A stretch of DNA of 64,000 nucleotides from Bacteroidota bacterium (GCA_038529705.1 JBCBDM010000001.1:3025-67024); one strand, 5' to 3'. Positions 3,397-29,173 are shown, counted from the first letter of the stretch. Notes: a model not told the origin generated them from the letters alone. Program-made: numbers and translations.

Positions 3397-4689
3397 TTAT
3401 TCTTTAATAAATTGTTTGGACACCACTTCGGTAGTGGTGAAAATTCGAGCCAGATAGATACCGGAAGGTAAACTAGAAACATCAACTTCCCGACGGTTAG
3501 ATTCTTCGATTACCAACGCTCCTGCAGTGGTGTAAACCTCGATCTCATCGATGGCCTCAGAACTTTGTATACGAATCTGTTGTTTCGCAGGGTTTGGAGA
3601 CAAAGAGAATGCTACCAATGCATTATCATCCACCCCCAGAATGCAGTCCTCACTATACGTGGTGGTTGCGTCCTTACACCAACCTTCCCCTATGGGATCA
3701 ATACACATCTGGCTATTGGCATAGTCTTCATCGTCCACCAAAATACATTGCAGATCCGGATTGTTGAGGGTTGAAATAAAGGTGATGATTCCGCTATTTC
3801 CGTTTTTAATATTGAGTGAGGTAAGTTCGTTGTCTCTCAAAAAAGCTACTTCCAAATTTGGGTTCAACGAGAAGTCCAAATGGGTGAGTAGGTTTTCAAA
3901 CAAAACCACGGTTTCCAGATCAATATTCTGAGAAAAATCGATAGTCCCGGTTAAATCATTGAAGCCCATAAACAAAGTATTGAGTGCTGGATTTTGAGTG
4001 ACATCAATGGTGGTAAGATTACAATTGTTGGCTTCCAGGAAATCCAGTGCCGGATTCGCAGAAACATCCAAGCTTGTCAATGGATTGACACTTACTTCCA
4101 GTGATTCAAGATTGGGGTTTTGAGATACGTCCAAATTGGTTAGTTCATTGACCGCACAATCTAAATAGACCAAATTTGGATTTTGGGTTACATTGAGACT
4201 TGCAAATTCATTACCCCCTACATCCAATAACTCCAGATTCACATTTTGGGTGAGGTTGAGTTGCGTCATATCATTAGACCTTCCAATCAATTCCCTTAAG
4301 CCAGGATTTTGGGTGACATCCACAAAGGCAAAGAAATTGGAACTAAAGTCCAAAACCTCGAGGTTGGACATCTCTGTAACATCTACAATTTGCAAATTAT
4401 TATCGCTACAGTCCAGGATCACTACATTATCGAAGGCCTCGGAGCCCTGCATATCGTTGATGCCAAAATCATTGACATACAAAGCCGTCACTGCCAAGGC
4501 TTCCGAAAGCTGCACCTCTCCATCGTTATTGGTATCCACATCTGTATCGCCTACACCATCATCATTGGTATCCACTACGGGATTATTCACCAAGGCATCC
4601 TTAAAGATAGGGTCAGGGATATTGACGATTTGGGCTTGGACAGCCAAAGAAAGAAAGAAAAGTAGTGTGAGTAGGTAGTATGGTTTCAT
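3397..4689 (-). CDS. T9SS type A cargo, leucine-rich-repeat (internalin-like) protein
   Basis: Signal peptide; DTNNDGEVQ Ca-binding-like motif; about ten LRRs (L..LDV..N..L..L); CTD LSPNPA...SLPSGIYLARI...KQFIKE. Confidence 0.85.
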   Translation of the reverse strand: MKPYYLLTLLFFLSLAVQAQIVNIPDPIFKDALVNNPVVDTNDDGVGDTDVDTNNDGEVQLSEALAVTALYVNDFGINDMQGSEAFDNVVILDCSDNNLQIVDVTEMSNLEVLDFSSNFFAFVDVTQNPGLRELIGRSNDMTQLNLTQNVNLELLDVGGNEFASLNVTQNPNLVYLDCAVNELTNLDVSQNPNLESLEVSVNPLTSLDVSANPALDFLEANNCNLTTIDVTQNPALNTLFMGFNDLTGTIDFSQNIDLETVVLFENLLTHLDFSLNPNLEVAFLRDNELTSLNIKNGNSGIITFISTLNNPDLQCILVDDEDYANSQMCIDPIGEGWCKDATTTYSEDCILGVDDNALVAFSLSPNPAKQQIRIQSSEAIDEIEVYTTAGALVIEESNRREVDVSSLPSGIYLARIFTTTEVVSKQFIKE

Positions 4690-4834: not shown

Positions 4835-5227
4835 CTAATTTGCAGTGTTAACCCCAAACATATCGTTAAAATTTAATTTGTCATGAATTATTTTGATTTT
4901 TGTTTCCAATATGAAATTATATTCTATCATAATCAATTGTACTGATTTGTCATTTTCACATACTATAACTCTGTGAAAAGTTCTATGAAAAATATTCTCA
5001 ACAGTTGATCGGATTTTTCTTTCAATTCCAAGTTTTTTCAAGTTTTCGCTTGGTGGTAATCTAATTTGACCGTTGCAGACTATACCTTTCCTTTGAGCTT
5101 TCTTAATAGCTTTCTTTAATGTTTTATCGGTTCTGTACGACCAAGAGAAAGATTTGAAATAGATAAAAAAACATAAATACAATATGCTTATTAAAATTAA
5201 TAGGTAAATTATAATTTCTAAGTTCAT
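4835..5227 (-). CDS. Putative cognate immunity protein of the Rhs toxin (membrane-anchored)
   Basis: 130 aa, directly downstream of and overlapping (ATGA) the Rhs stop; very AT-rich (10 G+C in 4861-4920); N-terminal hydrophobic helix. Confidence 0.6.
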   Translation of the reverse strand: MNLEIIIYLLILISILYLCFFIYFKSFSWSYRTDKTLKKAIKKAQRKGIVCNGQIRLPPSENLKKLGIERKIRSTVENIFHRTFHRVIVCENDKSVQLIMIEYNFILETKIKIIHDKLNFNDMFGVNTAN

Positions 5228-8200
5228 CTTCTATTTCTTAAATAAATTCCCCCATTTATGTCAGCTACAAAAAAAGCTCCAATGGAGATTCCACTTCCAA
5301 TTCCAAATAAATTTACATTATTATTCGTGTCTTGACTTGCTTGTATTAATAACATTTTTTCACTCATTGTAGTTGTGCTATTAATTAAAGAATTATCATA
5401 GCGTGTTAAATTATCGACGGTTTCTACCGAAAATCCTGCAAGCACATCATACCCGACTCGGTGAACAAGCCTTTGAGTGTCATCATTTAAATAATAAAGT
5501 TCAGAATTATTTTCAAAACCATCAATTATATTAAATGAAAGGTCCACATCTAAATCAAATAAAACAGCAGAATGATGACCAGCTTCAAACCCTCCAACAC
5601 CTTCAATATCACCTGCAATTTGATTACCAACTGAAAGTCTAATTTGTCCATTAGCGGAAACTTCTAGACTTTCTTTTACTCTTCTCAGCCCATTTTCTCG
5701 AAGTTCATCAGCTGTATCCGAAACAAATTGTTTTGTCTGTTGGTTTTCAATTAATTCTTGCTCAGAATCGGCAAATCCACCGAACGTAAACAGATTCTTA
5801 AAAAAGTTTTTTATAATTCTTCCGTAACATGGCGGATCAGGACAATCCATACCACCATCTGGATCAATTCGTGAAATAGGGTTATTCCCCATCCCAAGAT
5901 AAGGAGAAAAATGTTGTTTTGCCGGATCTGTCGTCAACCATCTTCCCAATCTTGCATCCCAGAGTCGTAACTCAAAGGCCTCCATCCCTGTCTCATCATC
6001 CTTTTCCTGTCCTTGGAAGGCATAACGATATTCCCCTTCCTGATTGCGCTCCGGCATGGGCATCCCAAAGGGATAATAATCCTTATACGCCAGCATGATG
6101 GGGGTATTGTTGGTGGAAATATCGGTAATAACCACATTGTCGATGGTATAGATATTGGTCCAGCTTATAGCGCCATCATTGTTCAAGCCAAAGTATAAGT
6201 TGACCGGGCCTCCCATCAAGGAAGTATATTGAAAGGTAATGCTGCCCCCTTGGGAAGTCACATTGGGGTTTTGAAAGACGGTATTGGTACTCACCCCATA
6301 ACTTAGTGAATTGGCACTTATTAATCCCAGGTCAAAACTAATACTATAGCTTCGGTGGGCCACCGTGTTAAAGGATAGGTAGATCCCATTCTTTGCCTGT
6401 ACACTGGGGACATCGGCTCTTAACTCCTCATTGGTCGCGGTCACATTGGTTCCGGTAAATCCGTGCCAGGGCGGCATGCTCACGATGTTAGAGGCAAAAT
6501 CTTCCTCGTACACGATCTGCGGACTAAAATCCCTCATGATCACCCCGCGTACATTCCCCAGATGGTCGGTAAGCTCATATTTATAGATGCCAGCATCGTC
6601 TCCAACGCCCAAGCGGGAAGCCCCGTAAATTGGAAATTCTAATTCAGAGGTCATACCCGAATCTCCACCGCCATCAGGGTCCAGGGTATGAATAGCCAAT
6701 ACCTGCCCGGATATGTCCCGTACGTAAAAGGTAGAAATGGGATCGTTGTTCGAATCGATGAAGCGCTTTTCCACACGGTGTCCCCGGTCATTATAGTAAA
6801 ATTCCACTCGTTGGGGATCATTGGTAATGGTAGAATACACCGATTTTACCAAACCATTGGTATAGTAGCTATACCCCAACTGATCCTGTACATTTTCTAT
6901 CAACTGACCAATGCTATTGTATACATAGTTCCCGGAATTTTGATCCTTAATATCTCCATTCTCGGCCGTATTCCCTGAGGTATCATCCACATGGCCCAAT
7001 TGATTGCTGTTGGGTAAATAGTTGTACTGTAAATTATCCATGACATTCCCGCCACTGGTATATTCTCTTGTTCTGGTTAAGGACTGAATATTCCCGTTGG
7101 GATCATAGGTCAACCCGGAAACACTAAAATCCGGCGTGGCACCACTGGTGTAGATATTACCATTCACACTCCCAAAGGTAGCAGCACTCAACCACTTGTT
7201 CCCATTGTATTGATATAAATATCCATTTTGAGTGCCAGGGGTATTCAAGCCTTGGGTGGCCCATCGGGTACCTTTGATATTGCCGTCAAACCGATTGTAA
7301 CCACTGGGAGAAGAACCGATGGCTACACTATTTCTAGAGTAGTCCTTTTCGTAATAATCCAGGATCAAGCCGAAGGCGTTGTTGGTATCATTTCCGGGAT
7401 CATTCGCAGAGAGGTCCGAATTGTTGATGGACTTCAATCGCCCGTCCAGGGTATAAACATAATCGATCCCCTGCAGGCCTTGGGCCAAGATGATGCGCTT
7501 CAACTCCCCACTTTTATAATAGGTGTACCGTGCATGTTCCATATAGTTGATATTGTCTCGAGACGTTTCCACAATTTTTAGTTGCCCTATATCATTGTAT
7601 TGGTATTTATGGGTAAAGCGCTCGGTGGCCTCTCCTTTTTGATACAATACTTTGGTCACTTCTCCTGTAGATTCGTCATATTCATAATCGAGGGTCTTTG
7701 CCCCCAGGCCATTCACATGTTGTACGATCCATTCTACACGCCCATATACATCGTAACTATACCAAGTAGTAGTAGTTTCAGGATTCTTTGTATAAGTTTT
7801 AGAGACGTTTCCAGTAAGATGTTGTTGCACGCGCAGTTCTCCCACTCCAAATCCCAGGTTCCCAGGATAGAGCACATCATGAAGCCCTTGGGTATCTTTT
7901 ACGTCATAGACCGTAAAAACCTGTTCTGCGCAGGTAGCCGGGTCCACTACCCAATCGTCAATGGATGGGGGTGCCGGAATAAAATTGGCATCTAGCTCTT
8001 CCAATTGAATGTTGGAAACGACGGAGCCTGTTTGAAATAGCTGTCCATCTATCAAGTAAGAAGGGGTAGTTGCCGCCAAACTCAATGTATAGAAGGTCTG
8101 GTCATTCTTTTTGAAATATACATTCTGCCCAATTCTTTCAATTTGAAATACATCATTCTCGTCATAGATAGTTGCCGACTTAGTAAGGCCTGCCCCGTAG

Positions 8201-10467
8201 TTCATTACATTTACCTGGTTCCATCGAAAGTACATCCCGTACTCAACAGAAGTGTGGTCATTGAAATCCTGTTCTAAGTTTGTTTCAGAAATACCAACGG
8301 TACCTCTACCGTCCTTTGAAAACTGAAAGGATATCCTAAAGTTTCCTGTCCCAGTACCTTCATTAGAAATAAAACCTGAATTATTAGAGGTATTGACGCC
8401 ACTTTTCACCACTTCGCCAGGGGTCGTGGACAATCTACTCTGTACCACAAAGGTGGGAATTGTGGTGCTCAGGGTTTCAAAAAAGGGTAAGCCACTGGTG
8501 CTCACACCGCTCTCTACTGGCCGTCCCAAATCGTCATAATTGGTATATGAAAATTCCTGATCGATCACCTGCTGAGAATTTCTTGAAAACCGGATCTGCC
8601 CATCACTTCTGTAGATGAACTCGGAGCTTCCTTCATCTGGTGATGAGGTATTTGTTAGCTCTCCGGCTCCGTTATAAGTAAAGGTAGTGGCCATAGTATG
8701 GTTGGGAGTTCCTGTTTCTAAATTAAAAGCAGCACTGTCAAAACCCAAGGGTTGGGTAGTAGCGGTTAAACTCCCGGCTTCGTTGTAATAATTGATGGAG
8801 AAATCATAGTAATTCACGTTGTAACGAATTCCTTTTATGGCTCCTCCTACAAGATCCCATTTAATTTGTCCGTCGGATTTAATGTGCGTTTTAGCCTGGT
8901 CGTTGAACGTTCCTCCAGCCCATTCGATCCGGTAGAAATTTCCAGGAGCCATATTACCTGGATTGGATAACTCCAAGCCCGTTCTCAAGTCGTAAACTCG
9001 ATAACCTGACCCGGCTCCTCCAAAAAGCTCATAGCCACCGGAAGCGTTTTGTGGATAATGAATATCCACATATTTTTGCTCCCCGATAAGATATACTACC
9101 TCATAGGAAGTGTTGCCGCCGGACCTTCCTATAGCCAACACTTTTCCTTCGGCATCACTAAAGGAAACCACCTCGTTACCGTGAGCATCCTGGGAAACAG
9201 TTTTATAACTTTTTAGGACCACTTCTTTCCCCAGTCCCGATATGGGACCCTCAAAATAATCCTGTCCAAATAGATAATACAATTCCTGAGCCGCGGGAAA
9301 GGTATAAGAAAATCCCTGAGGATATCTATCGAGGAAACCATCGTCCGCCCCATTTGCATTGGCATCCAGCTCCTTTCCACCCGAGGCTCCTCTAACTCCA
9401 CCTGGGTTTAATTCGTCGTAAATGGTGCGTGTGTAGGGTCTGTCCTCAGCCACATCCTGATAGGATTCCAGGGTATTGGACTCTCCGTAGTACCAGTTCA
9501 GGGTTCCGGGAAGCGGAGTCCCATCCAATAAGGGAGGATTCTCCGGATCTGCATTGAGCTGGGCCTTGGTAAGGCCATGATCATTCTCGTGTGTGATAAA
9601 ATTACTCTTATAAGAAAAATGCTCCGGTGTTCCCTCCAACGGTGCGCTAAAGGTTTGAAGCGCGGGTCTCCCTTGATAATCGTATCTAGTCTCGGAAACC
9701 CAGGTTTTATTGGTTTCATAGTCTTTGGTCTGTGATTGAGTCCCTTTCCCAAGGCGATCAAAATAATTGATCGAGGCTCCCTTTAAGGTGCCCGAATTGT
9801 CGTAGGTCTTTGCCCGAATCCAATTTCTGCTCACATCTACGGCAACCACATTCGAGTTGGCAGCCACCCCTTTAAAACCGGAATTATTGAGCGTAAATGA
9901 GAAGTTATCCGAACTGGTATACAGCGCCACTTTCCCGTTCTCCATAAAATTATCCGTGATAAGATGCTCGGTAGTATTATACGTTAATAACAGCTTATTA
10001 TTCTCTGTTTTCTCGATTCGAAAGATATCACTGGTATTGGGAGTGATATCGTTCAATCGATCGATCTCTCCCTCAGGGCCGTGGAATACAACGGCATATT
10101 TGGTTACACTGGATTCCAGATAGGGTTCCAAGGTTATGGAATAACTATTTTGATGCACGCTGGCCAGACTAAAATTGTTCTCGAACGTAAAATACATTGA
10201 AAATGTATTAAGTTCAGATTGAACGCTTAAGCTACTATTGTTGAGCATGAGACTCGTAATTTCAATAAAGCCTGTATCTATCGAATATAGCTCATCTTGC
10301 GACAACATATAGGCATTGGCATTTTGACTTAGATCACTCTCAATGGCCCCAGTTTCCGGAATCACCTGAAACGCTGTGTTCTCCTTCCAGGTCAATTGCT
10401 GACCCTGGAGAATTCCAAAATTGAACAAGATTAGATATGCTAGAGATTTTAATAGGAATGATTTCAT
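5224..10467 (-). CDS. Rhs/YD-repeat protein with Rhs-associated core and polymorphic C-terminal domain (putative toxin)
   Basis: Sec signal peptide; YD repeats; YELTDHLGNVR; core YRYAFQGQEKDDETGMEAFELRLWDARLGRWLTTDP...PYLGMGNNPISRIDPDG; ~209-aa AT-rich C-terminal domain. Confidence 0.9.
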   Translation of the reverse strand: MKSFLLKSLAYLILFNFGILQGQQLTWKENTAFQVIPETGAIESDLSQNANAYMLSQDELYSIDTGFIEITSLMLNNSSLSVQSELNTFSMYFTFENNFSLASVHQNSYSITLEPYLESSVTKYAVVFHGPEGEIDRLNDITPNTSDIFRIEKTENNKLLLTYNTTEHLITDNFMENGKVALYTSSDNFSFTLNNSGFKGVAANSNVVAVDVSRNWIRAKTYDNSGTLKGASINYFDRLGKGTQSQTKDYETNKTWVSETRYDYQGRPALQTFSAPLEGTPEHFSYKSNFITHENDHGLTKAQLNADPENPPLLDGTPLPGTLNWYYGESNTLESYQDVAEDRPYTRTIYDELNPGGVRGASGGKELDANANGADDGFLDRYPQGFSYTFPAAQELYYLFGQDYFEGPISGLGKEVVLKSYKTVSQDAHGNEVVSFSDAEGKVLAIGRSGGNTSYEVVYLIGEQKYVDIHYPQNASGGYELFGGAGSGYRVYDLRTGLELSNPGNMAPGNFYRIEWAGGTFNDQAKTHIKSDGQIKWDLVGGAIKGIRYNVNYYDFSINYYNEAGSLTATTQPLGFDSAAFNLETGTPNHTMATTFTYNGAGELTNTSSPDEGSSEFIYRSDGQIRFSRNSQQVIDQEFSYTNYDDLGRPVESGVSTSGLPFFETLSTTIPTFVVQSRLSTTPGEVVKSGVNTSNNSGFISNEGTGTGNFRISFQFSKDGRGTVGISETNLEQDFNDHTSVEYGMYFRWNQVNVMNYGAGLTKSATIYDENDVFQIERIGQNVYFKKNDQTFYTLSLAATTPSYLIDGQLFQTGSVVSNIQLEELDANFIPAPPSIDDWVVDPATCAEQVFTVYDVKDTQGLHDVLYPGNLGFGVGELRVQQHLTGNVSKTYTKNPETTTTWYSYDVYGRVEWIVQHVNGLGAKTLDYEYDESTGEVTKVLYQKGEATERFTHKYQYNDIGQLKIVETSRDNINYMEHARYTYYKSGELKRIILAQGLQGIDYVYTLDGRLKSINNSDLSANDPGNDTNNAFGLILDYYEKDYSRNSVAIGSSPSGYNRFDGNIKGTRWATQGLNTPGTQNGYLYQYNGNKWLSAATFGSVNGNIYTSGATPDFSVSGLTYDPNGNIQSLTRTREYTSGGNVMDNLQYNYLPNSNQLGHVDDTSGNTAENGDIKDQNSGNYVYNSIGQLIENVQDQLGYSYYTNGLVKSVYSTITNDPQRVEFYYNDRGHRVEKRFIDSNNDPISTFYVRDISGQVLAIHTLDPDGGGDSGMTSELEFPIYGASRLGVGDDAGIYKYELTDHLGNVRGVIMRDFSPQIVYEEDFASNIVSMPPWHGFTGTNVTATNEELRADVPSVQAKNGIYLSFNTVAHRSYSISFDLGLISANSLSYGVSTNTVFQNPNVTSQGGSITFQYTSLMGGPVNLYFGLNNDGAISWTNIYTIDNVVITDISTNNTPIMLAYKDYYPFGMPMPERNQEGEYRYAFQGQEKDDETGMEAFELRLWDARLGRWLTTDPAKQHFSPYLGMGNNPISRIDPDGGMDCPDPPCYGRIIKNFFKNLFTFGGFADSEQELIENQQTKQFVSDTADELRENGLRRVKESLEVSANGQIRLSVGNQIAGDIEGVGGFEAGHHSAVLFDLDVDLSFNIIDGFENNSELYYLNDDTQRLVHRVGYDVLAGFSVETVDNLTRYDNSLINSTTTMSEKMLLIQASQDTNNNVNLFGIGSGISIGAFFVADINGGIYLRNRR

Positions 10468-10491
10468 AATAGCTTATTTTCAAATTGGAAA

Positions 10492-13400
10492 CTACTGCTC
10501 TATACAGTTAGTACAGTTAAAACTTGTGTGAACTTTTTCAACTTCTATGTCCTGAATGGTTGGATAATTCACCATATCCCGTACCGTACAAATGAACTTT
10601 ACTCCGTAATTAGTACTAGGATCACAAATGGCCTGGGCCGGCCCAATGATAAACAACTCAGACATAGATGCACTGCCACCTTCATCTTCAATTTCACCAA
10701 TGAAGTTTCGGGGCGCCAACTCTATTCCTCCATCCATATAGGCCCATTCCCAGGTATATCTAAACTCATCTGAGGCGCTCTCAACATGCACTAAGTGAGT
10801 AAGGTTGGTGTCCGGACCATTCTCATAACACAGATCTATGTTCAATTGATTGAGTATCACCGAAATCTCTGTGATCGGGTCCGGATCTCCTGAACAAGTA
10901 CCGGTGAAAGTAGGGTCATAATTGTCGCTTATCGTCAATGATTGTCCTAAAGTAGCGTAGCACTCATTATCCACTGCTGTTATGGTAACTGTGGCAGCCC
11001 CCTGACCGTTGGAAGGCCCCGGGACATAGGCTACTTCAAAGACTGGGTCTTGATTGGCCGCGGTGATCGTAAAAGATCCTGATCCCGGAACCCCATTCAC
11101 CAATAAGGTTGCCGTACCATCGCCTCCGGTTTGGTTTTGTACCGCATAGGTCACTGTGGTTCCAATGGGTCCTCTCAAAACCCCGGAAGAGGGCCCAAGT
11201 CCAACACAGCTCGAGAAGTCGTCAAAGTAAACAGGCTCTGGCTGACAACCTCCACCTCCTCCAGAAGATCCATCCAGGCCTCTTTGATAATTGTACTTGT
11301 ATTCCACGGCCTTCTTGAACCCTCCGGTAATAGAAGCCGTGTTGGCGGTTTCCTGATACACCCGAATGAGTTTTCCTGAGGCGTCATATTGATACTTTGT
11401 CGCCAAATTATTAGGTCCTAAGATGAAGGTAAGCTCGTCTTTGTCATTATAAACATAAGAGGTCATGGAAGAAGCCACGGGAAGTATTCTAAAGTCATCG
11501 ATAAAGATATCCCCGGCTTCCGAAGTCACCAGAATGATCTGGTTACTGTTTGTTTGCGCCTGGCTGATATCAAAATAATGGTTCATCAACACCCAATTCC
11601 CGGCGGTAGTACGTTCCCCATTGAAATTTTCAAGTGCACCAGTCCATCCCATCTTGATACGGGCCTTCGTATAATTATCCTTGTGGATCCAGGCCGAGAT
11701 TTTGTATTCCCCAGCTCTAAATTGATTGGCTCTCAAGACCGTTCCAAAAGTGGTGGAAACACTGTTTCCGCCCGGACCAATTTTCACAGAATACTCACCG
11801 GTATGGGATTTCTCATCCGTCTGGAAATTTAACCCAAATACATCATGATCCAGGTAGTTATCTCCAGGAAGGTTATCATACTCCGCACTGGTATAGATCG
11901 CCTCGCCATATCGGGCATTAGAGGTTAACAATACCTTACTCTCTTTATCAGTAGTTCGAGTAGTTGCATAATTATTGTTGATATCCTTGACCTCCAATAC
12001 CTCAGAAAAGTGATTGTATTTGGTAATGGTAGATACTTTCTTCCAGGGGTTGGGTTGATTGGCGCCTACAGCCCAATTAAATCCGTCATCATTGGAAGTA
12101 TCAAATCCAACCAGTCGCCCGTTGGCATCGATATCTCCATCCCAGATGTAGGTTCTGTCTTTTCGCCACACCTTTTTGTTATTGCTAGACTCCTGAGGCT
12201 CATCTATTCCTCGGTAATCGGTATAGATCCAGTTATTGCTCCAGGTGGTAATACCTACTCCAATAGGCCTCCAGGTTCCGTTATCGTCTACAAAGGAATA
12301 ATTGGCCGCATTTTGGGTAAGCATATTCCTATTGTGTACGTTAGCAACTTTGCTCCCCATGTCTGGATATTTTTGATAAGCCGGAACGTTCACCGTTTTG
12401 TAAAGAACTCCTTTACTGTCCTTAGTTATGATCTCATCGGACATTCCATTGACGGGGTTAAACTGTGTGAATTCAGATTCCTGCGCTACTCCATTGGAAA
12501 TACTAGTAGTCGATTTCAAAAGATTGGGATATTTAATTCTAGTTGAAGAATTGACAATCCATTTATCGGTTTTGGTAGCATCTGAATAATCAACCGACTT
12601 ATAAGTTTGATAGGACTCTTTGGTCATACCCACAAGACTCGGCGTTTCCTCAGGGCTGAAGTATTCGTTCTTGGTGATTTGAACGGGTTGATTCTCGGAA
12701 TTATAGGTTTTTACTTCCAACAATTGACCAATAGAAGCCAAATTATCCTTTACGGTAAAATTGGAAATATTAACCTCTTTGTTCGCTGTAGAATTGGTAA
12801 AGGTTGTGGTAAAATCGGTATCGATTTCATAGAAATTTCCAAATTCAGCCGTCCCGGTTCGATCCTTTAAGACATTAAACTTATAAACCGTCTTTCCATG
12901 GACTACGTCATCGTCTCCAACAGATTTGGTGGTGACATATTCGTACATCACCTTTGGCGAAGGCAACTCTGCACTATACGGTACTTCTTCCTCGAGTTCA
13001 TGTGCAAATGGAATATAGCTCACGTACCCAATTCCATCTTCGTTTTCACCGTATTTGTATTCTGTTTTATAACTGGTGGATCCATCCTCGGTGGCAATTT
13101 GCGTTACACGCACACCACCTCCTTTTAGTACCTTATTTGCCGTATTGAACCTGACTTCGGTTCCCCGATAGAACTTTTCAAAGTAGTGAGAATTAGGACC
13201 ATTCAGATATGATTCTATCAAAGGTATGTTCGTTGCAGACCCTCCATACTCCAGCGTCATATCATTGTCAAAAGTTACTTCGTAACGATTGATTCCCAGC
13301 GCTGTTGTCACCGTGGCCCAACCATTATAACCGGACAAAACACCTTGTCCATTTAACGGAGGATACTTCCCCTCATAATTTACCCATACCTTATCTCCAA

Positions 13401-16302
13401 CATTCAATACCAAATTTGCATTGGACTGTATCTCCAACTTCTTGTTGGAAACATCATTGATATGGGAGTAGGTAGGATAGGTAGAAGTGTAAATTCCTTT
13501 GGTATAATTGGTGAAATAGAAGTTGTGGTCGACCGCCGAATAGTGTTCGTGCTGATCATAATCTATCTTGATCTTTCCCCCCTGAGGTGTTTGAATTTCA
13601 TTAAGCGACCATAATGAATTATCATGGGTAAAATAACCCCATTCGTCTTTCTTATTGATATCCCAGATATATGAGAGGTCATTGTATTTGAATTTATAGG
13701 AAGGAACCGTTTGCACCCCTCCTTTTCCTTTAAATACGACTTTGCTAAGTCCCGACTTATTATTCTGATAAACCAGAGGTTCATAAAGCATATCGATCAC
13801 CTTCAAGGCCTTATCGTACAGCTCAGAATCCATATCCACCTTATTGATGGTATTAGATCTGTAATTATATCTGGCACTTACATTCTCTTTAACCGAATTG
13901 TTATACTTAACGTTTACGGTTGAATATGTGCCACTCTCTCCCGGACCATGTGTAGTTACGGCCGTGGCGTCTTCATTCTTCAAAAGTAAAACCTCTGCCA
14001 GACGCAATTGTTTTTGAGCAGGAATGGTAAATCTCGCTACATAGTCTGCATTGGTTTGATTTACATTGGCATGAACCACAGATCTGTACGTCCATGCTTC
14101 TGATTCCTCATGAGGGCTTTCCTCTTTTACAAATACTGCTGTATGTGTCCTCGTAGAAACTGTGTTTAAGTAGAACAGCTCTTTTCTACCGCGAATCCAG
14201 GTTTTCGTTCCTGAATTTTCATCGCTCTCACTTTCTATATAATCTTTGTCGTATGGGTTTTTCCAAACAAATGCTTCACTCCACTTTCCATAGGAGAAAC
14301 TTGTCCAATATCCATAATCCCCTTGATTGGCAATACCATCGTTATTCTCATCAATATAATCCGGTCCTGTGACTGCGGTTAACAACCAATGGGTGGCGTA
14401 GGGTTCAAGCTGTCGTTTTTCAAAGTAAGATTCATCTTCCTCTTTGGGTATTTCATCATTACCTTCTTTGATAATTCCGAACGTTCTGGTAATTATTTCC
14501 TCGTTATACACAGGTAAGGAATAATGGAACGTTTTACCATCGGCAGCGGTTATCTTAAAAGCACCAATTCCGTTTCTTGGTTTAGTGCTTCTATCAAAAG
14601 TGCTCGTGGTAACGTCCGCGTTAAGATATCCTTCGCTTTTGATCGTAGTGTAATTATCGAGAATATCTCCATTGGTATAGTACTCAATATAATTTGATGT
14701 TGTTCTTCGATCTTCTCCAGCCAGCTGAACCCCATTCGAATAATAGTCTTCTATGTCATTGAAATTTCCTGAACTGAAGAAATTCGCTGAACTCACATCG
14801 GCATCCAAATAGGAACTAATCTCGTTGTCGAAATAGAAATTGGGACGGTCGTCGAACTTGGCGAAATCCGGAATAGCTCCTAAGCCATCAATTTCGTAGC
14901 CCAACGTATACCCTTGATCATTTTCTTTTCCATCCAATCCAAACAGGGCTCCATTTTCAAAAATGCGTGGAGAAATATTTCCAGAAATTCCTTGTGCTTG
15001 AACATTGAACTTATCGAAATTAGGGAAGGTCAAGTTATTCGTAGCTGCATCGGTCGTCTTGGCCATCAAGGGTGAAATTTCATGGATGTCCATAAATGAC
15101 TCCGGGCCCTGGATTTGGCGTAAGGTGCAGTAACAACCATAGGGGTCGCCAGGAGGATCCTCAGTTGCCGCTTTAAAATCCAATGCCTCGTTGTAATCAT
15201 TGGTAACGAGATAACCGCAAATTTCCGGACCATCAACGGGATCATCGCTAATACACTCTACTTCCCAGAGTTGACCATTGCTTACGCCATCATAAAAATA
15301 GAGTGGTCCTTCTATATGGTTCTTGTCGACTTGTCCTAAATAATATCGAATACGTTGTTTCCCAAAGGATAAACTAAATACGCCTATAGGTGTTGGTACA
15401 TATAGCGGAATATTAAATCCACTACTTTTCACCGTATAGTCTCCCATACTTACCGAGTTGTTAAATGAGGTACTCAAGCCAACTCCGCCCCCAGTAACCG
15501 TATTTCTAATCGATCCCGAAATACCAACTCCCGATGAGGAAAAACTTACTCCCAGGGATCCTGTTAGTTTATTACCTATTCTATCGGTAATTCCAAACGA
15601 ATAACTTCCCTGATTACTGAAACCAATGGAGAATCCTTCACCATTGCTGTTAAACCCAATGGATCCGCTAACGTTCCCATTGGTTGAAATACTGGCTCCA
15701 AGAGATAATTGACCACTCTGTCCTCCAATACCGGCAGAAATTCCAACGGAGGCCCCGTCTGTTCCAATTTCCCCTTCAATACCAATACCTCCTCCTAAAC
15801 CAATTCCAACACTTACAGATCCTCCCAAACTTCGGTGACTTCCCCAGGATAAACCCACACCTACCGAGACTCCGTTCGAATACCCAACAGATAGCGAATA
15901 CATACTTTGCGTTCCTCCTTCATCATAGAAGAATTCTGTTAAGAGAGCACTATTGTAATCGTCCGGATAACCGTTAATGTTTCTATTAATAGCTCCGGGA
16001 TTTAAGTTCCAGCCCAGTCCGGTCCAGGATGCCTCCTGATCCATGGCTATACCAGAATGATATGCCAATGCCAATGGGTAACCCCCTTCCGGACTGGGAA
16101 CATTTAACAAGGGTAAGACATATGTGAAGTCCCCAGTGGCCAAATTCACCATGTCCGTGGCATCCACCGGTTCGAAACTTGCCGCCTCAGGAGCGTTGGG
16201 TCCATTATTATTTGCCAACAAATAATTGTAGGGAACAAAGGTTTGAAGGAAATTCAAAATTAGAAAAACAGCTATGACTCGGTGTTTTGGCTTAATTTTC
16301 AT
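10492..16302 (-). CDS. Giant YD-repeat protein with TcB/SpvB/DUF6531-like N-terminus (putative Rhs shell partner)
   Basis: Signal peptide; DMVNLATGDFTYVLPLL..PSPEGGYPLALAYHSG...ASWTGLGWNL; YD-type strands (TSYVYNDKDEL, TKYQYDASGKLIRVY); no Rhs core; Cys-rich C-terminal extension. Confidence 0.7.
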   Translation of the reverse strand: MKIKPKHRVIAVFLILNFLQTFVPYNYLLANNNGPNAPEAASFEPVDATDMVNLATGDFTYVLPLLNVPSPEGGYPLALAYHSGIAMDQEASWTGLGWNLNPGAINRNINGYPDDYNSALLTEFFYDEGGTQSMYSLSVGYSNGVSVGVGLSWGSHRSLGGSVSVGIGLGGGIGIEGEIGTDGASVGISAGIGGQSGQLSLGASISTNGNVSGSIGFNSNGEGFSIGFSNQGSYSFGITDRIGNKLTGSLGVSFSSSGVGISGSIRNTVTGGGVGLSTSFNNSVSMGDYTVKSSGFNIPLYVPTPIGVFSLSFGKQRIRYYLGQVDKNHIEGPLYFYDGVSNGQLWEVECISDDPVDGPEICGYLVTNDYNEALDFKAATEDPPGDPYGCYCTLRQIQGPESFMDIHEISPLMAKTTDAATNNLTFPNFDKFNVQAQGISGNISPRIFENGALFGLDGKENDQGYTLGYEIDGLGAIPDFAKFDDRPNFYFDNEISSYLDADVSSANFFSSGNFNDIEDYYSNGVQLAGEDRRTTSNYIEYYTNGDILDNYTTIKSEGYLNADVTTSTFDRSTKPRNGIGAFKITAADGKTFHYSLPVYNEEIITRTFGIIKEGNDEIPKEEDESYFEKRQLEPYATHWLLTAVTGPDYIDENNDGIANQGDYGYWTSFSYGKWSEAFVWKNPYDKDYIESESDENSGTKTWIRGRKELFYLNTVSTRTHTAVFVKEESPHEESEAWTYRSVVHANVNQTNADYVARFTIPAQKQLRLAEVLLLKNEDATAVTTHGPGESGTYSTVNVKYNNSVKENVSARYNYRSNTINKVDMDSELYDKALKVIDMLYEPLVYQNNKSGLSKVVFKGKGGVQTVPSYKFKYNDLSYIWDINKKDEWGYFTHDNSLWSLNEIQTPQGGKIKIDYDQHEHYSAVDHNFYFTNYTKGIYTSTYPTYSHINDVSNKKLEIQSNANLVLNVGDKVWVNYEGKYPPLNGQGVLSGYNGWATVTTALGINRYEVTFDNDMTLEYGGSATNIPLIESYLNGPNSHYFEKFYRGTEVRFNTANKVLKGGGVRVTQIATEDGSTSYKTEYKYGENEDGIGYVSYIPFAHELEEEVPYSAELPSPKVMYEYVTTKSVGDDDVVHGKTVYKFNVLKDRTGTAEFGNFYEIDTDFTTTFTNSTANKEVNISNFTVKDNLASIGQLLEVKTYNSENQPVQITKNEYFSPEETPSLVGMTKESYQTYKSVDYSDATKTDKWIVNSSTRIKYPNLLKSTTSISNGVAQESEFTQFNPVNGMSDEIITKDSKGVLYKTVNVPAYQKYPDMGSKVANVHNRNMLTQNAANYSFVDDNGTWRPIGVGITTWSNNWIYTDYRGIDEPQESSNNKKVWRKDRTYIWDGDIDANGRLVGFDTSNDDGFNWAVGANQPNPWKKVSTITKYNHFSEVLEVKDINNNYATTRTTDKESKVLLTSNARYGEAIYTSAEYDNLPGDNYLDHDVFGLNFQTDEKSHTGEYSVKIGPGGNSVSTTFGTVLRANQFRAGEYKISAWIHKDNYTKARIKMGWTGALENFNGERTTAGNWVLMNHYFDISQAQTNSNQIILVTSEAGDIFIDDFRILPVASSMTSYVYNDKDELTFILGPNNLATKYQYDASGKLIRVYQETANTASITGGFKKAVEYKYNYQRGLDGSSGGGGGCQPEPVYFDDFSSCVGLGPSSGVLRGPIGTTVTYAVQNQTGGDGTATLLVNGVPGSGSFTITAANQDPVFEVAYVPGPSNGQGAATVTITAVDNECYATLGQSLTISDNYDPTFTGTCSGDPDPITEISVILNQLNIDLCYENGPDTNLTHLVHVESASDEFRYTWEWAYMDGGIELAPRNFIGEIEDEGGSASMSELFIIGPAQAICDPSTNYGVKFICTVRDMVNYPTIQDIEVEKVHTSFNCTNCIEQ

Positions 16303-16352
16303 ACTTCACTAGTATTTAGTAGTTTTTATTCTGTTTATTGAAAAAGAGGAAA

Positions 16353-16964
16353 TCATATATCAAATTGCAACATGGGCTCATCTTTTATTTTGCGCACGCT
16401 CATCTTGAATTTCACTTCTCCGGTTTTCACTCCGATATCCTCTATAGACAAGGTTAGTTCTCCATTGTCTTTGACTACTTCGTCCCTGGGAAACACAAGT
16501 AACATGGATGTAGCATGGGTCATTCCATACATCCTAGGATATACATAGTCTTTCATGTTTATAGTATCTTTATTTTTATTGTAGAGGTGTATTTTTTGGT
16601 CCATTCCGAAGGACAATTGATTCACCATAGCGCCAAACTCGTGTCTATTGCTGGGAACAGCACTTAAAAGCTCCCTACCATTTTTAGACAGACTTAAATT
16701 GAAGTAGACATTCTCTTGATAGAATGCACGTAATGAATCTATACTAGCCTTTGTAGAAACGCCCTCTAATTCTTGAATGACCGTAAGATCAACAGGCCGA
16801 TACATCAAAGAAATCTCCACCCCATTCACTTGCTTCTTTTGCAGATATCCGTTCTCAGGATCGCTGATATAGGATAGTAGTTCTTCTTTGGTATCAAAGC
16901 TCTTTTGCTGACAACCTGTAGCGAAAATGGCTAGTACAAATAAAATCAAATAGGCTCCCCTCAT
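16353..16964 (-). CDS. Hypothetical lipoprotein co-transcribed with the Rhs genes
   Basis: Probable start MRGAYLILFVLAIFATGC (lipobox) at 16964, 7 bp after the ompH stop; the ORF-track extension to 17072 overlaps ompH and is unlikely. Confidence 0.7.
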   Translation of the reverse strand: MRGAYLILFVLAIFATGCQQKSFDTKEELLSYISDPENGYLQKKQVNGVEISLMYRPVDLTVIQELEGVSTKASIDSLRAFYQENVYFNLSLSKNGRELLSAVPSNRHEFGAMVNQLSFGMDQKIHLYNKNKDTINMKDYVYPRMYGMTHATSMLLVFPRDEVVKDNGELTLSIEDIGVKTGEVKFKMSVRKIKDEPMLQFDI

Positions 16965-16971
16965 ATTCAAT

Positions 16972-17505
16972 CTATTTGGCGTTGAATTCTTTGTTGAGAC
17001 CCTCCAAGACCTCATCGGTGAGATCGGAGACATCGTCTGCATACATGATATTGCCCCCACCGCTAGCACCAAAAATCACTTTGTAATTGTGCTTTTTCCC
17101 ATACTCCTTTACAAAGTCGTTGATGTCATTCACTACCGTTTGGGTAGCCTTTTGGTCTTCCTCCTGGATTTGCTTTTGGATAGCCTGTTGGTATTGGCCA
17201 ATTTGCTGCTGTTTGTTGCTCAGCAATTCCTGCTTCAACTCCAGCTCTTTTTTAGTCATGGATGCCCGTTCTTTTTCGTAGGTCTTTAGTTCTTCCTGCC
17301 AATTCCCTATCAAACTATCCACATTGGCTTGCAGTTGTTGCGCCTTAGTTTCGAACTTGGATTTTTCCACTTTGGTACGCGCATATCCGTCCACCAATTT
17401 GTTGACGTCTACGTATACGAGTTCTGAAGAGGATTGGAAGTAAAAAAAAGAAAAAACGGTAGCTGCTAAGGCTAAAATTGAAACGGGTAATGCTAGTTTA
17501 TTCAT
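16972..17505 (-). CDS. ompH: OmpH/Skp family periplasmic chaperone
   Basis: YVDVNKL motif, long Gln/Lys/Glu coiled coil, C-terminal YKVIFG...IMYAD...DLTDEVLEGLN; probable start MNKLAL at 17505. Confidence 0.85.
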   Translation of the reverse strand: MNKLALPVSILALAATVFSFFYFQSSSELVYVDVNKLVDGYARTKVEKSKFETKAQQLQANVDSLIGNWQEELKTYEKERASMTKKELELKQELLSNKQQQIGQYQQAIQKQIQEEDQKATQTVVNDINDFVKEYGKKHNYKVIFGASGGGNIMYADDVSDLTDEVLEGLNKEFNAK

Positions 17506-17658: not shown

Positions 17659-17763
17659 CTTGTAAATTTTGGAGTAAAAAATTGTCCTTCAATCGCTTAG
17701 AACAAAAAAATGCTGAAACCCCAAAATTTGGATTTTCGAAGGCTTAAAATCTTACTTTTAAGT

Positions 17764-18183
17764 ATGAACATTTATAGGAGAAAACCACTAAAAAAAGTTC
17801 CGGCCTACACCATGGCCGAAGTACTTTTTGCACTCGCCATTATCGGAATAGCTGTCTCCATTGCCATTCCCATTTTTTCACCGGCTACAACCAAAGCCAA
17901 GGCCACGGAAGCCCAATTACAACTGAAGCATATTCACAACCTTCAAACACAATTCCGCTATGTGCGGTCCAAATACTCTATGGATTTCTATGAAATTGAT
18001 TTTGAAGCCCCCAAAACCGTCAAAGAAGAGGGTTTTGCCAATTATCGATACGAAATCATCCAGGCCTCGACTACCTCCTTCAAGGCGAGAGCAGAAGCCG
18101 TAGTGGATTTCGACGGAGACGGGATCGTTAACATTTGGGAGATCGATGAAAATGGTGTTCCTAAAGAAATTACCAAAGATTGA
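17764..18183 (+). CDS. Type IV pilin/major pseudopilin (GspG/PulG-like)
   Basis: KKVPA|YTMAEVLFALAIIGIAVSIAIP: class III signal peptide with Glu+5; C-terminal DFDGDG motif; probable start at 17764 (ORF track begins 17710). Confidence 0.85.
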   Translation: MNIYRRKPLKKVPAYTMAEVLFALAIIGIAVSIAIPIFSPATTKAKATEAQLQLKHIHNLQTQFRYVRSKYSMDFYEIDFEAPKTVKEEGFANYRYEIIQASTTSFKARAEAVVDFDGDGIVNIWEIDENGVPKEITKD

Positions 18184-18674
18184 TCTGGACCCTTATTAAA
18201 ATAGTACTCATGGGGACACTGGGAATTATCGGTGTACAGGACCTTAAAGAGAGACAGGTCTGGGCTTTTCTGTTTCCATTATTTGGCGTACTGGGAGCGG
18301 TACTATTCTATCCGAAGGTGACTCCGGCTTTTTTTTGGCTCTCCATTGTCATCAATCTAGGGTTGGTAATCGTGATATTGTTGATCAATTTCATAGTAGC
18401 ACGATATATTCTGAAAAAGAATCTATTCAAAGAGGCCATGGGCCTGGGAGATGTGTTGTTCTTTATGGGATTTGCGATCTCCTTTCCCACACTAACCTTT
18501 ATCAACCTATTTGTTTTCTCCATCCTATTCACCCTTGTCTTTCATTATGTCCTTACATTTTTGAATCGGTCAGTCCTCGCCACCATTCCCCTGGCCGGAT
18601 GTATGTCCTTGTTTTTAACAACCATCTATCTCATCCACTGGACGGGATTTTATGACCCATTATATTTTCTGTAA
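18180..18674 (+). CDS. Prepilin peptidase A24-like (short, peptidase domain only)
   Basis: Multi-TM; catalytic Asp motifs QDLKER and MGLGD; overlaps the pilin stop. Confidence 0.75.
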   Translation: MIWTLIKIVLMGTLGIIGVQDLKERQVWAFLFPLFGVLGAVLFYPKVTPAFFWLSIVINLGLVIVILLINFIVARYILKKNLFKEAMGLGDVLFFMGFAISFPTLTFINLFVFSILFTLVFHYVLTFLNRSVLATIPLAGCMSLFLTTIYLIHWTGFYDPLYFL

Positions 18675-20075
18675 ATGCAATCATTTGAAATACCCACATC
18701 TCTAAAACAACTCATTAGCTCCAATCAGGCTTTTCACTACCGGATCGTCCCAATGGAAAAAAAGGGAGATGTGGTGGTTTTTAAAACCGATGCCGAACAT
18801 CCGGAACTCTTGCATTCTGAATTATCCATTGTTTTCAACTTCACTCCCGAACTCCAACATGACTCTTCAGAAAACATTCAGGCTTACCTTATATATAACT
18901 ATCGTCAAACCACCACCGCTCTGGGTGGAATTTCGGAAGCTACCTTCCTGGAAGAATTACTACAGACCGCCAAAGACTTCAATAGCAGTGACATTCATCT
19001 GGAACCTTATGAAACTCTCTGCCGTGTTCGGTTTCGCCTGGATGGCAAACTCAAAGAACACTATCAAATCTCCCTGAACCAGTATCCAAAGATCATTAAT
19101 ATCATTAAACACAGGGCAGAACTGGACGTATCCCAGAAAAGGCTTCCACAAGATGGAAGGATAACGGTAAAAGGAGTGGACGATGATTTCGATATCCGGG
19201 TCTCAACCATGCCTTCATTGCATGGCGAAAAGATCGTTCTTAGGATTCTCAAGCAAGACGCGACGGGAGTGGAATTAAAAAACCTCGGATTCAAAGAGCG
19301 TGAATTGAAATTGTACCTGGAGGGCATCAAGATGACTACCGGTATTATTCTCATATCGGGACCCACTGGTTCGGGTAAAACCACCACATTGTATGGAACG
19401 CTCAAGCTATTGAACAGCGAGGAGAAAAATATCCTTACCGTTGAAGACCCCATAGAGTATACTTTAGATGGGGTAAATCAAGTACAACTCAAGGAGGATA
19501 TCGGCTTGGACTTTCCAAGAACCCTCCGAACGTTCCTTCGGCAGGATCCCAATGTGATCATGGTAGGAGAAATCCGGGATAGAGACACAGCAGACATGGC
19601 TATTCGGGCGGCTTTAACCGGGCATCTGGTATTGTCTACCATTCACACCAATTCCGCTTGGGCTACAGTCTCCAGACTTATCGACATGGGAGTACCTCCT
19701 TTTCTGGTAGCCAGCACCCTAAAATTAAGTGTAGCCCAACGGTTGGTTCGAAAGCTATGTGATCATTGTAAACGAATGGAGCCTGTTACCGAAAACCTAT
19801 TTCCGGAGAGCTTTTCAGAAAAAAAAATGATCCCACAACACTATGTATCCGTGGGCTGTAACCAATGTCATTTTACCGGATATAGCGGACGAAAAGCCTT
19901 GTATGAGATCATCCCTGTTCGGGCCGAATTGGAGCAGGCCATCAAGCGCAATGCCTTGCAGATAGATGATTATTTGATCGAAAATGACCTGGGGACGCTT
20001 CAAAGCAACGCCATAGATATGATTATCAAGGGCGAAACCACAGTAGACGAAGTTTATTCGCTATTGACAAACTAA
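18675..20075 (+). CDS. gspE: GspE/PilB family secretion ATPase
   Basis: Walker A GPTGSGKTT, Asp box TVEDPIEY, LRQDPNVIMVGEIRD, His box STIHTNSA, tetracysteine CDHC..CNQC. Confidence 0.95.
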   Translation: MQSFEIPTSLKQLISSNQAFHYRIVPMEKKGDVVVFKTDAEHPELLHSELSIVFNFTPELQHDSSENIQAYLIYNYRQTTTALGGISEATFLEELLQTAKDFNSSDIHLEPYETLCRVRFRLDGKLKEHYQISLNQYPKIINIIKHRAELDVSQKRLPQDGRITVKGVDDDFDIRVSTMPSLHGEKIVLRILKQDATGVELKNLGFKERELKLYLEGIKMTTGIILISGPTGSGKTTTLYGTLKLLNSEEKNILTVEDPIEYTLDGVNQVQLKEDIGLDFPRTLRTFLRQDPNVIMVGEIRDRDTADMAIRAALTGHLVLSTIHTNSAWATVSRLIDMGVPPFLVASTLKLSVAQRLVRKLCDHCKRMEPVTENLFPESFSEKKMIPQHYVSVGCNQCHFTGYSGRKALYEIIPVRAELEQAIKRNALQIDDYLIENDLGTLQSNAIDMIIKGETTVDEVYSLLTN

Positions 20076-20082
20076 CTAACAC

Positions 20083-23417: not shown

Positions 23418-23940
23418 GAATATAGTACTGATTGTAGGGTTTATCATTGTACTGTTATTGTCCTACAGATTCGTCCTCTCCAAAACGATCTTCCTGAAAA
23501 ATGAGATCTCCAAACTCGAGCAGCATCTTGTTAGTTCGGAAGATTTGGCCCACATCGCCCTACAGCTTGACCAGCGCGAGAAATTTATAGATTCTGTACT
23601 TCAGAAGAACAATCTAAAGCACCTATCCATCCAAAATAATTTACTGGAATTTTTAAACCGTGAAGCACGGGAGGGCACCTTCCAAATCACGCAGTTTACG
23701 GAGCCACATCGATCTGTTGAAAATGAAGTAACCACTACTTCGTATCGGTTTACCCTCAGAGGGTCTTTTCTCGCTTGCGAACAGATTATCTATCAACTTG
23801 AACAAGCATATAATTTCGGAAAAATTACTCATTTGAAGTTCGAGAAAAAACGAGACTTCCGGAAAGGGAAGGACTACCTGGAATGTAATGTGATCATAGA
23901 AAGTTTTGTTTCTCTACAAAGAGTGAGGGCACTAGATTAA
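23398..23940 (+). CDS. PilO/GspM-like protein
   Basis: N-terminal TM, coiled coil, ferredoxin-like C-terminus (FTLRGSF...IYQLEQ); overlaps the previous gene. Confidence 0.6.
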   Translation: MKTPRNKNIVLIVGFIIVLLLSYRFVLSKTIFLKNEISKLEQHLVSSEDLAHIALQLDQREKFIDSVLQKNNLKHLSIQNNLLEFLNREAREGTFQITQFTEPHRSVENEVTTTSYRFTLRGSFLACEQIIYQLEQAYNFGKITHLKFEKKRDFRKGKDYLECNVIIESFVSLQRVRALD

Positions 23941-25620: not shown

Positions 25621-25632
25621 ATGTTAAATATA

Positions 25633-28669: not shown

Positions 28670-29173
28670 ATGATTCGATTAGCAAAACTTTCAGAAATTG
28701 AACAAATTATGGCAATTACCCGTGCCTGTGCCCATAAGATGATCTCCGAAAATATCTTTCAGTGGAACGAACACTATCCCAATGTGGATGCCTTTATGGA
28801 GGATTTGGAAAGAGAGGAGCTTTTTGTACTGTTGAATAAGGAAAGGGTAATTGGTAGTATCACTATTTCTTCCAGGAAGGATGTGGAATATGAAGCTATC
28901 GATTGGCTCACAGAAGACGGACACCAATACTATATCCACCGTCTGGCAGTAGACCCTTCCTTTCAACACCAGGGCAACGCCAAAAAATTGATGGACTTTG
29001 CAGAAGACTATGCCATCAAAAACGGGGCAACTTCCGTTAGGCTGGACACCTTCAGTGGAAACCCGAGAAATGAACGCTTTTATGAAGCTCGAGGCTATTC
29101 CAAATTAGCTCCGGTATTTTTTCCAAAGCAAAGTGATCTACCATTTTACTGTTATGAGCGGGTGTTCGATTAG
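28670..29173 (+). CDS. GNAT family N-acetyltransferase
   Basis: IHRLAVDPSFQHQGNAKKLM acetyl-CoA motif; VRLDTFSGN...FYEARGY. Confidence 0.9.
   Translation: MIRLAKLSEIEQIMAITRACAHKMISENIFQWNEHYPNVDAFMEDLEREELFVLLNKERVIGSITISSRKDVEYEAIDWLTEDGHQYYIHRLAVDPSFQHQGNAKKLMDFAEDYAIKNGATSVRLDTFSGNPRNERFYEARGYSKLAPVFFPKQSDLPFYCYERVFD

Follow-up and report, generated by a model that had tools for sequence, protein, structure and literature searches.

A 64,000-nucleotide stretch of DNA from a Bacteroidota bacterium (GCA_038529705.1, JBCBDM010000001.1:3025-67024), referred to here as the window, belongs to a flavobacterial contig of marine origin and carries two giant adjacent genes on its minus strand that resemble the genes for the B and C subunits of toxin complex (Tc) toxins. 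The first, P1 (10492-16302), is an open reading frame (ORF) of 1936 aa whose product is predicted to be a TcB-like tyrosine-aspartate (YD) shell protein without an Rhs core. The second, P2 (5224-10467, 1747 aa), follows after a spacing of 24 nt and encodes an Rhs/TcC-type YD protein with a core and a C-terminal toxin. In both the window and its relatives, the pair lies within a cassette whose order is a Skp/OmpH-like chaperone gene, a gene for a lipoprotein that we call X, P1, P2 and a small ORF. An earlier note, made from the window sequence by itself, had proposed that the two chains together build one YD shell, each with its own Sec signal peptide and without a TcA subunit. That note had described neither the cassette genes nor the nearby gene cluster that resembles a type II secretion system (T2SS) or type IV pilus (T4P), and it had also missed the absence of a TcB propeller, a barrel-like region in P1 and a published mention of a similar island (PMC5808330), all of which are described below.

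Domain organization of P2 and P1

Judged by its sequence, P2 is a true Rhs/TcC-type protein, and self-cleavage is predicted. The YD repeats, Rhs core and DPDGG motif that the earlier note had ascribed to it were confirmed by NCBIfam searches and by an alignment of 27 family members. The ORFs of P1 and P2 also proved to have exactly the coordinates that the note had given. A YD repeat matched TIGR01643 (E 1e-5), and PF05593 (RHS_repeat) was found in 19 of the 27 members with a best E value of 8e-10. The Rhs-associated core (aa 1464-1539, window 5851-6078) was detected by TIGR03696 at aa 1464-1538 (E 6e-16) and ends in DPDGG (aa 1535-1539), the predicted autoproteolysis site. Residues D1504, D1514, D1535, G1538 and G1539 were invariant in the 27 sequences. 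Upstream of the core lies a DUF6443-like start followed by the YD-repeat shell (aa 206-1460, 6088-9852), with lineage-specific inserts at about aa 650-850 and 1310-1450. The DUF6443 match was weak in the window protein (aa 226-287) and was found in 13 of the 27 family members, whereas P2 gave no match to PAAR or DUF6531. A sequence search of the PDB with P2 returned matches to the core region of the mosquito protein SGS1, and the family profile reached Rhs structures (7q97, 8h8a/b) and YenC2.

Both ends of P2 are variable. The N-terminal head (aa 23-205, 9853-10401) is optional, as 16 of 63 homologues lack it and have the signal peptide alone in front of the shell. The head type of the window was common to eight loci, and the other heads were BACON, leucine-rich repeat (LRR) or Ig domains. 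At the opposite end, the C-terminal toxin domain (aa 1540-1747, 5227-5850) contains a Gly-zipper-like segment, GIGSGISIGAFF, and is an orphan for which no homologue was detected. Toxins of the P2 family fell into 46 sequence clusters among 62 sequences, all of them 187-239 aa long, as if cavity size set a limit to their length. The types that could be recognized were an M91 peptidase, a peptidoglycan amidase, an ADP-ribosyl cyclase-like domain and a glycine zipper.

Searches of Pfam, NCBIfam and PDB sequences with P1 returned nothing significant. The earlier note had reported an N-terminal shell-start motif in this protein. The motif itself stood, with VNLATGDF...YPLALAYHSG...WTGLGWNL at aa 52-100, but its DUF6531 and SpvB matches were below threshold. 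DUF6531 matched 11 of 20 P1 family members at the very start of the profile (best E 3.5e-4, sub-threshold), and SpvB (PF03534) matched eight of the 20 (best E 0.011, below the gathering score) over the first ~55 of 287 profile positions. The window protein itself gave two weak matches, to DUF6531 at aa 50-101 and to one RHS repeat at aa 1618-1648. The SpvB/DUF6531-like region (aa 50-116, 15955-16155) is nevertheless the most conserved stretch of the family; the majority-residue fraction was 0.88 at aa 51-100 (16003-16152), compared with ~0.5-0.6 in most other conserved segments. A second conservation peak coincided with the last YD repeats (aa 1601-1650), and both peaks look like interaction surfaces. 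When profiles were compared with the PDB, that of the N-terminal motif found no match, and a 36-sequence profile of P1 found the final YD repeat, a weak match resembling a carbohydrate-binding module (CBM) and nothing else.

The YD strands that the earlier note saw along P1 could be recognized by sequence in the last repeats (~aa 1610-1650), but elsewhere they appeared in predicted structure only. Its statement that P1 lacks an Rhs core held in the Pfam and NCBIfam searches, in which none was found. The TcdB_toxin_midN, TcdB_toxin_midC, VCBS and FG-GAP domains gave no match in P1 even at E 10. The protein ends in a variable, Cys-containing C-terminal tail (aa 1681-1936, 10495-11262) that is not conserved. 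About 37 of 77 homologues have no such tail, and the others carry adhesin-type SprB, PKD or TSP3 domains. In about half of the homologues, the terminus of P1 is exactly the conserved YD hairpin. The P1 tail and the P2 head were also considered as a covarying pair; this idea was rejected because the tail type of the window occurs together with a headless P2 in all four of the loci L028, L035, L048 and L051.

Sec-type leaders were borne out on both chains, in the window and in the homologues. P1 begins with MKIKPKHRVIAVFLILNFLQTFVPYNYLLA/NNN (aa 1-30, 16213-16302; hydrophobicity heuristic and family consensus) and P2 with a sequence ending in FGILQG/QQ (aa 1-22, 10402-10467; hydrophobicity heuristic), the slash marking the plausible cleavage site. 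Both leaders have a charged, basic n-region and a 10-aa hydrophobic core, with mean Kyte-Doolittle values of 2.9 for P1 and 2.1 for P2, and small residues stand ahead of the cleavage sites (LLA/NNN and LQG/QQ). The same pattern was seen in 72 of 80 P1 and 62 of 63 P2 homologues, the failures being mis-called start codons.

Predicted structure of P1

Because sequence comparison revealed little about the P1 shell, two overlapping parts of the protein were folded with AlphaFold from a 67-sequence alignment and compared with the PDB using Foldseek, a comparison that the earlier note had suggested. Model 1 covered aa 31-1180 (mean predicted local distance difference test score, pLDDT, 76.5; predicted template-modelling score, pTM, 0.73), and model 2 covered aa 560-1700 (pLDDT 83.8, pTM 0.75). 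The best matches of model 1 were to the TcdB2-TccC3 fusion (6sup, E 8.5e-9; 4o9x, E 8.8e-8), followed by membrane beta-barrels. Model 2 matched TcdB2-TccC3 (4o9x and 6sup) at 2e-15, SGS1 at 4e-15 and the YenB chains 4igl_A, 5kis_A and 9c4k_P at about 5e-13 to 5e-12. Teneurins and the Rhs shells of type VI secretion systems (T6SS) ranked below TcB (E 1e-11 to 1e-9), and the TcC chain 4igl_B was matched at 1.3e-5. Since TcB matches, either as single chains or as TcB-TcC fusions (2e-15 to 5e-12), consistently ranked best, the models indicate that P1, in which no Rhs core was detected, has a YD shell of the TcB-like kind, as the earlier note had supposed.

According to model 2 and to the CBM-like and YD sequence matches, the YD-type beta shell spans aa 580-1675 (11278-14565), contains one or more inserted CBM-like domains and ends in canonical YD repeats. 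Model 2 also matched pore and prepore chains of iota-toxin Ib and CDTb (E ~1e-4, probability ~0.9), possibly by way of inserted beta-sandwich domains. The segment in front of the shell, aa 330-580, is of mixed alpha/beta character with few strands when model 1 is analysed with DSSP, and the TcB propeller is not present.

Between the shell-start motif and this segment lies a Gly/Ser-rich amphipathic beta region (aa 119-331, 15310-15948) that was predicted to form a closed barrel of ~13 short antiparallel strands. The strands are 8-10 aa long, and ten of them strictly alternate V/I/L/F with Gly/Ser. This alternation was kept in all 36 aligned homologues (z 4-8 relative to shuffled sequences). 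Foldseek matched the region to VDAC, OmpT, Omp33, NalP, FapF, LptD and FadL; the probability for VDAC reached 0.99-1.0, yet E values were 1e-3 to 1e-2 and pLDDT was 43-62. A membrane-type barrel is therefore a possible, low-confidence prediction for this part of P1.

P1 and P2 are an obligate pair in a conserved cassette

We examined the neighbourhood of P1 in 80 related genome loci, 61 of which were informative, with 4.5 kb or more of sequence beyond P1, and the neighbourhood of P2 in 79 metagenome loci, 60 of which had enough upstream DNA. An Rhs-core ORF followed P1 in 60 of the 61 genome loci. In 57 of these the gap was -44 to +114 nt; in the remaining three, a ~500-aa ORF, either alone or with a second ORF, lay in between. 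From the other side, P1 was directly upstream of P2 in ~55 of the 60 metagenome loci, and two of the exceptions were truncated Rhs copies. Loss of co-conservation, which the earlier note had named as grounds for giving up its proposal, was thus not found, because adjacency held in both directions. These data show that P1 and P2 constitute an obligate pair, and the best explanation is that they serve as the two large subunits of a toxin cassette conserved in Bacteroidota. The P1 family comprises 4252 representative clusters at 50% identity (E<=1e-3), and all of the related genome loci recovered were from Bacteroidota, mostly Flavobacteriaceae. P1-P2 fusions were found neither among the best 150 representatives, of which the longest had 2627 aa, nor among the ORFs of the 80 genome loci.

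The other cassette genes accompany the pair. OmpH and lipoprotein X lay upstream of P1, with X between OmpH and P1, in 58 of the 61 full-flank loci. In the window, the chaperone gene is the first of the cassette (16972-17505, minus strand) and encodes a 177-aa Skp/OmpH-like periplasmic protein with its own signal sequence, a Pfam OmpH match (E 4e-25) and a weak NCBIfam Skp match; its start codon was assigned from the sequence. Lipoprotein X (16353-16964, minus strand, 203 aa) has the lipobox MRGAYLILFVLAIFATG/C, with start codon and lipobox likewise assigned from the sequence, and gave no match in Pfam, NCBIfam or the PDB. At the other end of the cassette, a 130-aa ORF with an N-terminal transmembrane helix (4835-5227, minus strand) overlaps the P2 stop by 4 nt. 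A small ORF on the same strand followed P2 in 41 of 60 loci, and 20 of these ORFs had a transmembrane or signal segment. By its position and predicted topology, the membrane-protein gene after P2 may encode immunity.

A probable example of the same cassette has been described before. A ~35-kb island of Flavobacterium psychrophilum CC-ST10, FPSM_02418-02439, contains T2SS genes, OmpH and two ABC-toxin-like proteins, FPSM_02426 and FPSM_02429, and a dedicated translocation role was suggested (Duchaud et al. 2018, PMC5808330). That account consists of annotation and holds no pairing analysis, structure or function; we matched the two proteins to P1 and P2 by their descriptions only. We found no further paper citing these island genes, and none mentioning DUF6443.

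In the window, a T2SS/T4P-like cluster is divergent from the cassette (17710-23940, plus strand). On the basis of Pfam and NCBIfam matches and topology, it encodes a pilin, an A24 prepilin peptidase, a GspE/PilB ATPase, a secretin, a GspL/PilMN-like protein of 403 aa and a GspM/PilO-like protein of 180 aa. The ATPase and secretin scored equally with pilus and T2SS models, below the cut-offs of both. A T2SS-like ATPase or secretin was present within 10 kb of P1 in 33 of the 61 loci, and in 20 of these it was divergent and directly upstream. Beside the secretion cluster, two tandem paralogous genes for regulators with tetratricopeptide repeats (TPR) and an AraC-type domain (23932-27309, minus strand) possibly regulate the island. 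A promoter and terminator scan of the window performed no better than with shuffled sequence, and such a scan is ill-suited to Bacteroidota.

This linkage bears on the idea that P1 and P2 are merely an independent secreted adhesin and an Rhs toxin, brought together as T2SS substrates in a shared export island. The F. psychrophilum report lists both simply as exported proteins of a T2SS island, and a profile-profile comparison of P1 with P2 found a single shared YD motif and no other detectable similarity. However, P1 and P2 are neighbours in more than 90% of loci across Bacteroidota families, whichever of the two is taken as the starting point, and their frames overlap or nearly abut. This is hard to reconcile with independence, and the adjacency persists in the approximately half of loci that have no T2SS genes nearby. 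We consider this explanation very unlikely. The profile comparison also indicates that P1 did not arise by recent duplication of P2, given that one YD motif is all that the two profiles have in common.

No TcA-sized ORF is present in the window, and apart from P1 and P2 no ORF of at least 2000 aa, of TcA size or otherwise, recurred within 10 kb on either side of P1 in the 80 loci; the absence of TcA that the earlier note had proposed was thus upheld in this material. An animal-directed ABC-type Tc toxin of the canonical kind, with its TcA encoded elsewhere in the genome, would account for the TcB-like fold of P1 and for the presence of the cluster in F. psychrophilum, a fish pathogen. On the other hand, P1 has neither the propeller nor the TcdB mid domains on which TcA would dock, both chains bear Sec leaders, and the family includes immunity-like ORFs and toxins of the peptidoglycan-hydrolase or NADase type. 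Together with the missing TcA candidates, these features make a canonical Tc toxin extremely improbable.

Several loci departed from the usual arrangement. The ~500-aa ORF, which is absent from the window, encodes a helical TPR-like protein with an N-terminus of the twin-arginine translocation (Tat) type (..DRKDFLK..) and separated P1 from P2 in about ten of the related loci (among them L003, L008, L017 at 15025-16521, L023, L050, L085, L103, L122 and L154); it is possibly a third, optional component in the periplasm. In the most divergent locus, from a Bacteroidetes metagenome-assembled genome (L081, 342-8528), a 2729-aa Rhs-core ORF is upstream of P1, and the 1504-aa ORF downstream of P1 gave no tblastn match (E 1e-5) to the window Rhs core, so gene order differs there. 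A second OmpH-X unit immediately followed P2 in L020 and L055. Some genomes, especially those of Aquimarina, had several cassettes (the pairs L025/L027, L031/L080, L009/L048 and L070/L077), and tandem cassettes also occurred, as expected for polymorphic toxin systems.

A proposed shared cocoon and its possible delivery

How the obligate pair is assembled was judged from the features described above. The reading that we place first, and hold with moderate confidence, is that P1 and P2 form one shared BC-like cocoon. By their sequences the two chains have complementary ends, as in TcB and TcC, with the SpvB/DUF6531-like start on P1 only and the core on P2 only, which supports a split shell. Also in favour of this reading are the TcB-like fold of P1, the conserved YD hairpin on which about half of the P1 homologues end, the two conservation peaks of P1, the existence of headless P2 proteins and the abutting or overlapping frames.

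Several observations weigh against it. The conserved shell of P2, taken from the shortest homologues, is ~1030 aa, close to single-chain Rhs shells (PDB chains of 964-1048 residues), whereas TcC is shorter, ~670-690 aa. Because its length fits complete Rhs shells rather than TcC, P2 may close alone and do no more than dock on P1, and a plug could be provided by its own DUF6443-like start. The single YD motif shared by the two profiles is a further difficulty, as are the low TM-scores of P1 to TcB (0.25-0.28), although low scores are expected for partial shells with inserts. With its low pLDDT (~43-62), the barrel-like region of P1 could instead be a soluble or intra-shell element. As for export, the signal peptides are heuristic assignments, a T2SS-like cluster lies within 10 kb in just about half of the loci, and the 64-kb window yielded no gene for a GspF/PilC platform protein or a retraction ATPase. 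A secretin may, moreover, be too narrow to let a folded cocoon pass. On the expression side, the sole sequencing run that contained the window sequence was a marine metagenome.

In the alternative that we take most seriously, P2 is a self-closed Rhs cocoon, plugged by DUF6443, and P1 stays outside the capsule and acts as carrier or translocator. P1 would then be a substitute for TcA, either secreted or anchored in the outer membrane, on which P2 docks. It would consist of a barrel at the N-terminus, a funnel like that of TcB and adhesin tails, and would pass the toxin on. The length of the P2 shell agrees with this arrangement (single-chain Rhs shells of 960-1050 aa), an outer-membrane P1 would go well with the barrel-like region and with a dedicated Skp-like chaperone and lipoprotein, and the tails of P1 are adhesin-type domains. 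It fits less well with the open, TcB-like and coreless architecture predicted for P1, with the half of P1 homologues that end on the conserved YD hairpin, like TcB at its junction with TcC, and with minimal P2 homologues that carry just a signal peptide before the shell; moreover, the barrel on which it draws is a low-confidence prediction. We therefore regard a P1 carrier as possible, though not probable.

Under the preferred reading of a shared cocoon, both giants would be exported by Sec, as their leaders suggest, and would be handled in the periplasm by the dedicated Skp-like chaperone. They would then assemble into a BC-like complex in which P1 gives the start of the shell and P2 the core-sealed end around the cleaved toxin. 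The adjacent T2SS/T4P-like machine, where linked, might help the complex to cross the outer membrane or to arrive at the surface. More speculatively, the Gly/Ser-lined beta region of P1 would be the best candidate for a membrane conduit or anchor that replaces TcA and the TcB propeller. Variable adhesin-type domains on the C-terminus of P1 and the N-terminus of P2 would bind the target. The role of the cassette would be antagonism between bacteria, because the toxins are polymorphic, small ORFs are adjacent and some genomes hold several cassettes. A more specific version, in which the P1 barrel takes the place of the TcA syringe after insertion with the aid of the Skp-like chaperone and the lipoprotein, the cocoon is mounted or released by the T2SS/T4P-like machine, and the toxin passes along a beta-barrel instead of an alpha-helical channel, would make the cassette a toxin-delivery system not recognised before; it strikes us as unlikely in its entirety.

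Two other export routes were considered and rejected. Delivery of P1 and P2 by a type IX secretion system (T9SS) would call for a C-terminal sorting domain (Por_Secre_tail or CHU_C), which neither protein has. At least five other window proteins do have T9SS sorting domains (3397-4689, 29170-30942, 39959-43025 and 52454-54055; LRR, CHU_C, DUF5122 propellers and FG-GAP/ASPIC), so the organism has a T9SS that P1 and P2 apparently do not use. Delivery of P2 by a T6SS was set aside because P2 has no PAAR domain, no T6SS genes were present among the window ORFs scanned, and the neighbouring genes are T2SS/T4P-like.

The pair is like the BC subcomplexes of Tc toxins, TcdB2-TccC3 of Photorhabdus and YenB-YenC of Yersinia entomophaga, in that two genes are adjacent. 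The first encodes a large coreless YD shell, whose start in P1 resembles SpvB below threshold, and the product of the second combines YD repeats and an Rhs core with an aspartyl motif for self-cleavage and a C-terminal toxin that varies. Tc subunits, however, have no Sec leaders and are released by lysis (PMC10847048). P1 and P2 further differ in lacking TcA, the propeller and the TcdB mid domains, in the extra Gly/Ser barrel-like region of P1, and in a P2 shell ~350 aa longer than TcC. Genes for a chaperone and a lipoprotein and an immunity-like gene belong to the cassette as well, and a T2SS-like cluster is linked to it; its hosts are Bacteroidota, and its targets are likely bacteria.

P2 taken singly resembles the T6SS Rhs effectors RhsA, Rhs1, RhsP, Tse5 and Tse15 in its repeats, core, cleavage motif, shell length, polymorphic toxin and immunity-like ORF, but where those effectors have PAAR or VgrG-binding and DUF6531 parts, P2 has a Sec leader followed by a DUF6443-like region, and it is almost always paired with P1. 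WapA of Bacillus subtilis is a Sec-exported single-chain YD toxin. Bacterial teneurin-like proteins are likewise Sec-dependent single-chain YD toxins (PMC13018210), and a term search of that paper found no mention of Bacteroidota. The cassette shares with WapA and these proteins export by signal peptide, a YD shell, a polymorphic C-terminal toxin, an immunity gene, which in the cassette is a candidate, and adhesion domains. In contrast to their one self-sealing chain, the shell-start motif is on P1 and the core on P2. For Xanthomonas and Ralstonia, too, Rhs families linked to T2SS have been proposed, as a prediction that functional proof does not yet support (bioRxiv 10.1101/2025.05.08.652813).

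The observation of the earlier note was confirmed, and its interpretation is supported in part. The P1-P2 cassette is a widespread, uncharacterised variant of Tc/Rhs encapsulation that had been noted once before, in 2018. It is distinguished by Sec-type leaders on both chains, a chaperone and a lipoprotein of its own, linkage to a T2SS-like cluster, the lack of TcA and propeller, and a possible beta-barrel. Marine and freshwater Flavobacteriia probably use it as a major weapon when they compete with other bacteria, and a fish-pathogen lineage carries it too. To our knowledge, exit from the producer and release of cargo are understood for YD/Rhs cocoons only in the cases of the TcA syringe and T6SS spikes. 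If P1 and P2 do form a BC-like capsule, the split-shell design would predate TcA or exist independently of it, there would be a tractable case in which to examine the proposed export of Rhs proteins by a T2SS, and a beta-barrel alternative to the TcA channel might emerge.

Finally, the best PDB matches of the P2 family profile were to the mosquito salivary proteins SGS1 (E 2e-31) and SGS4 (E 5e-29), far above bacterial Rhs structures (window 5851-7600). Like the cassette proteins, SGS1 and SGS4 have YD shells decorated with lectin-like domains; SGS1 differs in being a eukaryotic single chain of ~3300 aa with another biological role. These matches hint that Rhs proteins of the P2 type from Bacteroidota are near the bacterial source of the SGS genes.

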